From: Eledone cirrhosa
Taxonomy: Eukaryota
DNA length: 64,000 nucleotides
Assembly (NCBI GenBank): GCA_964016885.1
Contig: OZ024746.1
Span: 94,364,001-94,428,000 of the forward strand
Reading direction: 5' to 3'
The notes beneath the pieces were generated by a model. That model was not told where the DNA came from. It saw only the letters and a list, made by a program, of their open reading frames with translations, and searched no databases. Below are positions 19,249-19,892 of this stretch, one piece after another. The stretch's first letter is position 1. Each line of letters begins with the position of its first letter. Both the position numbers and the translations under genes were made by a program.

Positions 19249-19292
<44 letters not shown>

Positions 19293-19360
19293 CAAGGTTT
19301 AGCAAATAATGAAAAAGTTTCAAAATAAATTTTAAAAAATTGACTTTACCTACTATAGTT

Positions 19361-19444
19361 ACCTTTACCGATCGGTTTCGAATCCCAAAAATAAAACGGA
19401 GACCATACGGCCCTCGTTGCAAAGAAAGATTCTCGTCAGAAGGT
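19361..19444 (-). ncRNA. Type I hammerhead ribozyme (mirror copy)
   Basis: Exact reverse complement of 19583-19666. Confidence 0.85.
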
Positions 19445-19582
19445 TCTTTTCATTCAAAGAATATAAAATTCCTGAATTTAAATTACAGACTAGCGCTATC
19501 AACACTCTCATCCCGGGAACAGTTTTGATAGCGCTAGTCTGTAATTTAAATTCAGGAATTTTATATTCTTTGAATGAAAAGA

Positions 19583-19666
19583 ACCTTCTGACGAGAATCT
19601 TTCTTTGCAACGAGGGCCGTATGGTCTCCGTTTTATTTTTGGGATTCGAAACCGATCGGTAAAGGT
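19583..19666 (+). ncRNA. Type I hammerhead ribozyme with extended stem II
   Basis: ACCTT CTGACGA GAATC...GATTC GAAA ccgatcgg TA AAGGT. All core nucleotides are present, with a palindromic stem III and GUA cleavage after 19661. Confidence 0.88.
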
Positions 19667-19846
19667 AACTATAGTAGGTAAAGTCAATTTTTTAAAATTT
19701 ATTTTGAAACTTTTTCATTATTTGCTAAACCTTGTTTATATTTGTTCTGGCTCGTTAATTTATTAACCCGCCATTGAACCACACTGGCATTTGGTTGGAC
19801 AATACATGCGTACCTTAGCGCCTTGTGCGTGAAGGAACACATATCC

Positions 19847-19892
<46 letters not shown>

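Follow-up and report, generated by a model that had tools for sequence, protein, structure and literature searches.

Structure and probable origin of a two-armed, hammerhead-bearing insertion of a 483-nt non-coding monomer in the genome of Eledone cirrhosa

In contig OZ024746.1 of the Eledone cirrhosa assembly GCA_964016885.1, a (TA)n tract is interrupted by an inverted repeat with a hammerhead motif on each strand. The locus lies in the window, i.e. the whole stretch of 64,000 nt that was analysed (positions 94,364,001 to 94,428,000 of the forward strand). The question is which unit is mobile here, the fold-back itself or a sequence of which the fold-back is one product. The feature is probably a short two-armed insertion of a 483-nt non-coding retrozyme, copied into (TA)n by the protein of an autonomous Penelope-like element (PLE). 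At the sequence level this reading is founded on the monomer, its copy number, two outer ends distributed one per arm, variable 5'-to-5' joints, a common haplotype of both arms and covariation in the ribozyme.

Inverted arms and hammerhead motifs of the window

Base-by-base comparison identifies 19290-19502 as the exact reverse complement of 19525-19737 (213 bp), with a spacer of 22 nt (19503-19524) and a single A/A mismatch at 19289/19738, just outside the arms. The exact arms and short loop within (TA)n, as originally predicted, are confirmed. The inverted-repeat search of the window reports 19286-19506 / 19521-19741 (221 nt, 99% complementary). Features are listed in Table 1, with monomer positions numbered from m1 to m483. 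The copy runs from m221 back to m5 on the minus strand and from m466 through m331 on the plus strand. The joint between the arms, at 19502/19503, is blunt and without microhomology, and the spacer is the exact continuation of the monomer as in locus L004. The predicted extension of the right arm by about 110 bp is present and corresponds to the stretch between m221 and m331; its predicted recurrence near 52850-52935 is found as the arm of a separate insertion. That arm is directly followed by an inverted piece of about 80 nt of the same subfamily B (about 52935-53014). Subfamily B is about 75% identical to the subfamily of the window copy and agrees with it in monomer size and in both end sites. 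A minisatellite with a 41-bp unit in 7 copies is located nearby (17764-18049).

Table 1. Coordinates of the features in the window (positions of the 64,000-nt stretch; monomer position m1 = 19521 on the plus strand).
Feature	Position	Strand	Remarks
Left (TA)n target microsatellite	19146..19288	.	TRF, 71.5 copies of AT
Left arm, m5-m221	19286..19502	-	Sense 3' end = fixed site 1 (m221) against (TA)n; 5'-truncated at m5
Right arm, m466 through m331	19503..19851	+	349 nt (72% of a monomer); its sense 3' end, at fixed site 2 (m331), abuts (TA)n
Spacer ('loop'), m466-m483 and m1-m4	19503..19524	+	22 nt; ordinary monomer sequence, 5'-truncated start of right arm
Type I hammerhead motif, mirror copy	19361..19444	-	Predicted cut after 19366
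Type I hammerhead motif	19583..19666	+	Predicted cut after 19661; helix I 5 bp; core CUGACGA / GAAA / GUA; helix II 5 bp and 2 G-U
Hairpin in helix-II insert	19609..19632	+	Also retained in subfamily B, where its sequence is different
'Tail' between the two fixed end sites	19742..19851	+	110 nt, on one arm only
Right (TA)n target microsatellite	19850..20010	.	TRF, 80 copies of TA
Arm m204-m331 of a separate insertion, sister subfamily B	52809..52936	-	81% identical; no hammerhead in arm

When the entire window was scanned structurally on both strands, hammerhead motifs were detected only at the two places in Table 1. Both are complete and of type I, as predicted; they are one ribozyme seen twice, not two ribozymes. 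In the plus-strand motif, helix I consists of ACCTT (19583-87) and AAGGT (19662-66), and the core CTGACGA occupies 19588-94. Helix II consists of GAATCTT (19595-601) and GGGATTC (19641-47), with a 39-nt insert that carries the predicted hairpin of its own. GAA follows, then the helix-III palindrome ACCGATCGGT (19651-60), and the predicted cut lies after A19661. The core of the form CUGANGA / GAAA / NUH, the three helices and the open helix I are those of a type I hammerhead. The designation 'minimal' does not apply. A minimal hammerhead has no helix III beyond the core, an extra base between positions 9 and 10.1 and the pair G10.1-C11.1; here helix III is retained as two C-G pairs with a palindromic loop of 4 nt, and A9 is directly followed by G10.1. 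By the 2-bp helix III and the absence of the extra base the motif is distinguished from the hammerheads of PLEs as given in the available text of PMC4209133. In the Rfam search of the window, 0 matches reach the gathering score, and the 26 matches at E<=10 are generic hairpin and microsatellite matches with no hammerhead family among them, a negative outcome of the model check that had been proposed. The long helix-II insert is probably the reason why Rfam misses the motif.

The nearest sampled copies of the element differ at 1 of 314-316 sites, in agreement with the young age that had been assigned to it. Position 19614 (m94) is a rare G, present in 3/114 loci and in both arms of the window insertion.

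The monomer family and the rule of its insertions

The monomer is about 483 nt long and occurs in tandem. Its GC content in the fetched loci is 38%. It has no long ORF, and its six-frame translation is full of stops, as expected of the non-coding element originally proposed. With the right arm as query, 2,599 candidates are found in the 3.0-Gb assembly; the 40 that were scored are 98-100% identical over 329-330 nt. High copy number is confirmed by a 24-nt stretch of the ribozyme, with 1,206 exact matches in the genome (control, 0). Neighbouring matches on the same strand are mostly 480-487 nt apart, and arrays comprise up to about 12 listed units. The window locus contains no same-strand tandem; the family as a whole has the two or more consecutive type I hammerhead monomers, the GC content below about 45-50% and the non-coding character by which non-LTR retrozymes are recognised. 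The ends of the element abut (TA)n, without LTR-type termini. As a circle, the monomer is predicted to fold no more stably than shuffled sequences (z = -1.2 against 60 shuffles). The family is likely to be an addition to the metazoan non-LTR retrozymes, with insertion of the Penelope type.

Arm ends were mapped in the first 150 loci, from which 23 duplicates of the same insertion were left out, giving 127 distinct loci; 60 of the 70 places of one listing (the other 10 mostly already in the set) and 40 of the 70 of another were also taken in. Adjacent arms in the 127 loci are oriented 5'-to-5' in 64 cases, in tandem in 3 and 3'-to-3' in 0. The pattern of m221 followed by (TA)n occurs 322 times in the genome and that of m331 followed by (TA)n 114 times. 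The 89 insertions picked by m221 comprise 41 two-armed and 48 scored as single-armed, the latter being, like all single-armed counts here, an upper bound, since arm ends were taken from BLAST, are uncertain by several bases, and short inverted stubs can be missed (e.g. L094). The opposite end of the 41 lies at m329-335 in 37 and at m221 in 1; the locus edge cuts 3. Among 70 loci picked by m331, a set overlapping the former, the opposite end is m221 in 52 and m331 in 0, with 16 single, 1 other and 1 at the edge. After removal of duplicates, 87/94 resolved junctions belong to insertions of the 221/331 type, 1/94 to the 221/221 type and 6/94 have one end elsewhere. The outer ends are therefore two fixed sites 110 nt apart, one per arm. 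The sole two-armed insertion with m221 at both ends is that of L063/L064 (G000:C1:34000385-34000893).

The inner ends are spread over the whole monomer. Inner junctions are mostly near-blunt or share a few bases, and some contain inserts; 98 different ones were recorded, each at one locus only. The features of mobilisation by an endonuclease-bearing (EN+) PLE are present, namely 5' truncation, an inverted 5' copy, a tail at one end and an AT-rich target. At the junctions of L022, L027 and L287, the 16-20 bases at the 5' extreme of the arm are repeated in a short templated tandem duplication, as from end-joining slippage. Arm 5' ends cluster at m197-201, m250-256 and m431-437 more than at the predicted cut (m197-201, 11 against 2.4 expected, in an uncorrected scan of all windows); these clusters may be pause sites of the reverse transcriptase (RT) or microhomology sites.

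Chimeric reads can give rise to perfect palindromes. The public contigs, which for 4 runs give deep coverage of the family, include none across this stretch, but contigs of this kind are broken by high-copy repeats. An assembly or library fold-back artefact is nevertheless scarcely credible: the arms end at different, family-typical sites, the flanks past both (TA)n tracts have no mirror symmetry, the spacer consists of genuine monomer sequence, and 98 different junctions of the same architecture occur under a strict end rule.

The original prediction regarded the fold-back as the element, a rod-like RNA in which the ribozyme is switched off and which feeds ADAR or Dicer. If the locus were transcribed through, a 213-bp duplex would indeed block the ribozyme: 213 perfect pairs with about -363 kcal/mol are predicted, and in the read-through transcript helices I, II and III have a pair probability of 0.0. 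The sequestering fold thus stands as a prediction; sequestration as a design does not. The whole ribozyme is present in both arms in 35/94 two-armed insertions, in one arm in 47/94 and in neither in 12/94. Near-symmetric junctions are modestly enriched (12/98 within 10 nt against 4.3 expected; permutation p=0.03 at 25 nt), and the single difference of the window copy from its nearest relatives is an A>G common to both arms. These points favour a functional fold-back, which is nonetheless improbable. The fold-back is not the element, because the unit is the 483-nt monomer and the junctions differ at each insertion; moreover, the 40 scored right-arm matches have other architectures, and among them this hairpin was not found propagating as a unit. 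An editing signature, expected of an ADAR substrate, leaves no trace in the genomic copies of the family: 25 A>G are opposed to 34 T>C single-locus variants, as base counts predict (p=0.9). Some near-symmetric junctions may have been formed by snap-back of cDNA ends.

Mobilisation of the Penelope type, with the hairpin as a by-product, is very probable. In the window copy both cDNAs cover the same stretch, which results in a perfect inverted repeat. With no second ribozyme on the same strand and some 134 nt of the monomer missing, this copy is a predicted dead end. Hairpins of this type may incidentally become targets of silencing or editing, though they are not themselves the element. One side effect of the process would be that many long perfect inverted repeats are seeded in the genome.

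Ribozyme conservation and the template of the arms

The ribozyme was aligned in 23 copies of two or three subfamilies. Its core is invariant or nearly so. Double changes occur in 7/18 pairs, a count that represents few independent events among the two or three subfamilies, and pairing is observed in 96.8% of 410 cells, more than in shuffles or slid controls. In helix I, U-A switches to C-G; in helix II, G-C switches to A-U and A-U to G-C. The pair 10.1-11.1 is G-C in subfamily A and A-U in subfamily B. The loop of helix III is palindromic in most copies (GATC, GTAC or GCGC). In the young subfamily, core positions vary by 1.3% (18/1,392) and positions outside the ribozyme by 5.4%, a difference inflated on the side of the core by loci partly picked on ribozyme sequence; the expected preferential conservation of the core is nevertheless observed. 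As the helices and the helix-III palindrome covary between subfamilies, the ribozyme is considered to be under selection.

The selected active form is likely to be a dimer, as judged from the sequence. The dimeric active fold of metazoan hammerheads needs a palindromic helix III, according to the available text of PMC4209133. By prediction, the active monomer fold costs 2.1 kcal/mol over the free fold (-19.8 vs -21.9), and the helix-III palindrome has -16.6 kcal/mol in trans with itself and -0.9 as a hairpin.

The proposed course of insertion is as follows. Tandem loci would be transcribed. Neighbouring hammerheads would pair via the palindromic helix III and cut out monomers, which would likely be circularised. 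A Penelope-type RT/GIY-YIG complex would nick both (TA)n strands, and from both target 3' ends reverse transcription would start on the same RNA, at two sites that lie 80 and 190 nt behind the cut. Both cDNAs would run toward the 5' side of the RNA, across the cut, sometimes for several rounds, would stop variably and would be united by end joining.

The state of the template is indicated by the variants of the arms. Comparison at 50 common polymorphic sites gives 39/1,011 differing cells for the two arms of an insertion, against 14,886/40,803 (36%) between insertions; tandem units within one arm differ in 40/824 cells. Some single-locus variants are present in every copy of both arms (L141, 7/7; L145, 5/5; L128, 4/4; L005, 3/3). 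At multiply covered sites, 163/192 single-locus variants, private among the 127 sampled loci only, are found in one copy only, 23 in all copies and 6 in some. Those of one copy only may have arisen by later mutation or reflect noise of the alignment. The length of one monomer is exceeded by 86 of 269 complete arms and that of two by 16; together the arms cross the predicted cut site 285 times.

An accumulation of arm ends at the cut, hinted at by three loci and by one set (7 vs 2.82), is absent in the other set (2 vs 3.05) and not significant after de-duplication (7 arm 5' ends vs 3.64 expected, p=0.077), and several of these ends include bases upstream of the cut. Because arms cross the cut freely without an excess of ends, the template was continuous across it, either a circle or an uncut multimer. 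New variants common to all units favour a monomer bottleneck and hence a circle, though DNA-level homogenisation or unsampled donor arrays may also be the cause of this sharing. The same haplotype in both arms and the multi-round arms fit one circular (or multimeric) RNA template. On balance, a circular RNA is the slightly more probable template. More tentatively, a dimeric Penelope-type enzyme might bind a single 483-nt RNA circle at both fixed sites, 110 nt from each other, with one site for each nicked (TA)n strand and both RTs rolling round the circle by strand displacement.

A serious if less probable account retains the enzyme and the start sites and takes as template an uncut linear multimer transcribed from a genomic array, with the hammerhead kept as a protein-binding or occasionally cutting structure and with homogenisation at the DNA level. 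Free crossing of the cut, with no pile-up of ends there, is as expected of such a template. Published experiments agree with it, as far as the available texts go: hammerhead mutants of a lizard element inserted as well as the wild type, with uncut RNA as the main substrate (PMC11167929), and 8/9 dimers of frog retrozymes were without cleavage in vitro (10.64898/2026.07.22.740005). Against an uncut multimer, a mutation of one unit that reaches all 4-7 units of both arms needs a monomer step or conversion. Unit-length variants (481-485 nt) are, furthermore, largely constant along an array and across both arms, and the double changes keep the palindromy of helix III, which points to selection on a dimeric active fold.

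Penelope-like elements of the same genome and known systems

GIY-YIG candidates number 10,596 in the genome, of which 150 were scored. A scan of six long frames gives RT and GIY-YIG matches in 4 and, at threshold, RT only in 2. The element at L171 has RT and GIY-YIG in a 938-aa frame, with a cysteine motif ahead of the nuclease in its family, as described for the Neptune and Nematis clades in the available text of PMC8557442. Copies of the L171 family are 93-98% alike and located in (TA)n. Two fixed ends, one per arm, are present in 5/5 of its two-armed copies seen. These end sites lie 74-76 and about 142 nt behind the cut of a hammerhead-like motif with a U3-A8 core; by the same measure, the 483-nt family has its site 1 at 75 nt behind the predicted cut. 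The U3-A8 core is a hammerhead variant described earlier (PMC4209133, available text), and such motifs are borne by two abundant Penelope-like families of this genome.

The monomer has no significant match in 40 GIY-YIG loci of the 10,596 candidates (best E 0.17), and its alignment with the L171 repeat reaches a score of 51 where shuffles give 49 +/- 6, i.e. without detectable homology. The predicted link with Penelope is borne out by an insertion footprint like that of this RT/GIY-YIG family. A footprint shared without sequence homology shows a shared mechanism, not the identity of the driver. The young, nearly intact Penelope-like ORFs at L171:4309-7122, L172:2188-4719 and L173:1375-4662 are candidate drivers; L171 and L172 are about 98% alike. 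The L171 repeat (near 7956 and 2977, minus strand) and L152, L162, L187 and L188 have hammerhead-like motifs in which the U3-A8 core is combined with the 6-nt palindrome ACCGGT. Helix I of L171 is nearly equal to helix I of the 483-nt family. A pattern search for a relative with a shorter helix II gave 1 locus, a deleted copy of the 483-nt family itself.

Physical linkage to PLE coding sequences, for which a check had been proposed, is not observed. No RT/GIY-YIG ORF was found at the window locus or joined to arms of the family, and only 4 of about 220 family loci contain PLE protein fragments, none joined to an arm by coordinates. This bears on the view that the arms are only pseudo-LTRs (pLTRs) of 5'-truncated autonomous PLE copies, with no independent non-coding replicon. 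Pairs of hammerheads on opposite strands, 100-700 bp apart, do result from truncated PLEs (PMC4209133), and inverted, 5'-truncated copies that carry a tail at one end are known (PMC8557442), both according to the available texts. The view is hardly likely, given the scarcity of protein fragments and given that, in 269 mapped arms, long arms going upstream re-enter the monomer (m1 to m483 to m331) and not an ORF. Descent of the family from a pLTR is likely; that it is a present-day pLTR is not likely.

An independent non-coding replicon of this kind has its closest counterparts in the metazoan non-LTR retrozymes, ORF-less tandem repeats that express circular RNA, for which PLEs were proposed as mobilisers and reverse transcription of circular RNA into tandem cDNA was proposed (Cervera and de la Pena 2020, PMC7229834). 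Mobilisation by PLEs was also proposed by Li, Clavereau and Pollet 2026 (10.64898/2026.07.22.740005). As characterised in the available text of both, these retrozymes resemble the 483-nt family in ORF-less tandem units with one type I hammerhead each, low GC content, dispersed occurrence and absence of an LTR. The family differs from those of PMC7229834 in the size of its monomer (170-400 nt there), in the long helix-II insert and in not being notably self-paired; 483 nt is within the range of 51-972 in the preprint. Expression and cleavage are shown for known retrozymes, whereas the present family is known here from its sequence. Fixed paired ends and two-armed insertions were not met in the available text of PMC7229834, where the word 'inverted' is absent, or of 10.64898/2026.07.22.740005.

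EN+ PLEs share with the family an inverted 5'-truncated copy at the 5' end, partial tandems, a one-end tail and a (TA)n bias (Craig et al. 2021, PMC8557442, available text), as well as opposite-strand hammerhead pairs 100-700 bp apart, a palindromic helix III and a short helix I with a long helix II (Cervera and de la Pena 2014, PMC4209133, available text). Unlike them, the family is without an RT/GIY-YIG ORF and without sequence homology to any sampled autonomous element, and its tail measures 110 nt as against 30-40 bp (PMC8557442).

PAc, a Poseidon element from the green anole, nicks both strands of its target in vitro and extends them, prefers AT-rich DNA and has two RT start sites inside its RNA that define the tail (Frangieh et al. 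2024, PMC11167929, available text). Use of both strands, an AT-rich target and two tail-defining sites are common to PAc and the 483-nt family. PAc is autonomous, and its start sites, located within the ORF in an AC-rich stem-loop, have no homology with the target; both sites of the 483-nt family, in contrast, end in a short TA-like stretch that might base-pair with (TA)n. A rule of one site per arm was not met in the available text of the PAc study. A literature search, to which subscription papers, Repbase and supplements (e.g. Supplementary Figure S9 of PMC7229834 and the tables of the 2026 preprint) were external, found no paper on two-armed retrozyme insertions or cephalopod retrozymes.

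Each visible feature of the insertion has a precedent; for Penelope elements, pairs of hammerheads on opposite strands and tails on one side have been published before. In the twin priming of LINE-1, two target 3' ends prime on the RNA and a 5' inversion results. The two cDNAs of LINE-1 correspond to different, non-overlapping parts of a single RNA, with a variable second site. Those of the 483-nt family overlap widely, by up to whole monomers, and both sites are fixed.

Mobilisation of animal retrozymes by PLE protein and a circular-RNA template are, in the available text of PMC7229834 and 10.64898/2026.07.22.740005, proposed and not shown. The 483-nt family gives countable genomic footprints for both, namely two fixed ends with one per arm, the same template in both arms, and multi-round arms. 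A genome with young, nearly intact RT/GIY-YIG elements of the same footprint makes the question testable in vitro, with the 483-nt RNA and a (TA)n target. Two-ended copying of one circle, if true, would represent genomic evidence for circular-RNA-templated two-ended retrotransposition and would account by one mechanism for the Penelope tail, the inverted arm and the tandem arrays of retrozymes.

Other repeats were recorded in the genome and in the window. Further hammerhead-bearing repeat families with a palindromic helix III are present at L181:7644-8900 and in the flanks of L176, L180 and L189. The open frame at 49827-50822 of the window (minus strand) has an RVT_1 match (E 7e-12) and is probably a LINE fragment. 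The stretch 51945-52139 of the window has a 78% match to the terminal repeat of the L171 family and is a solo, older pLTR piece.
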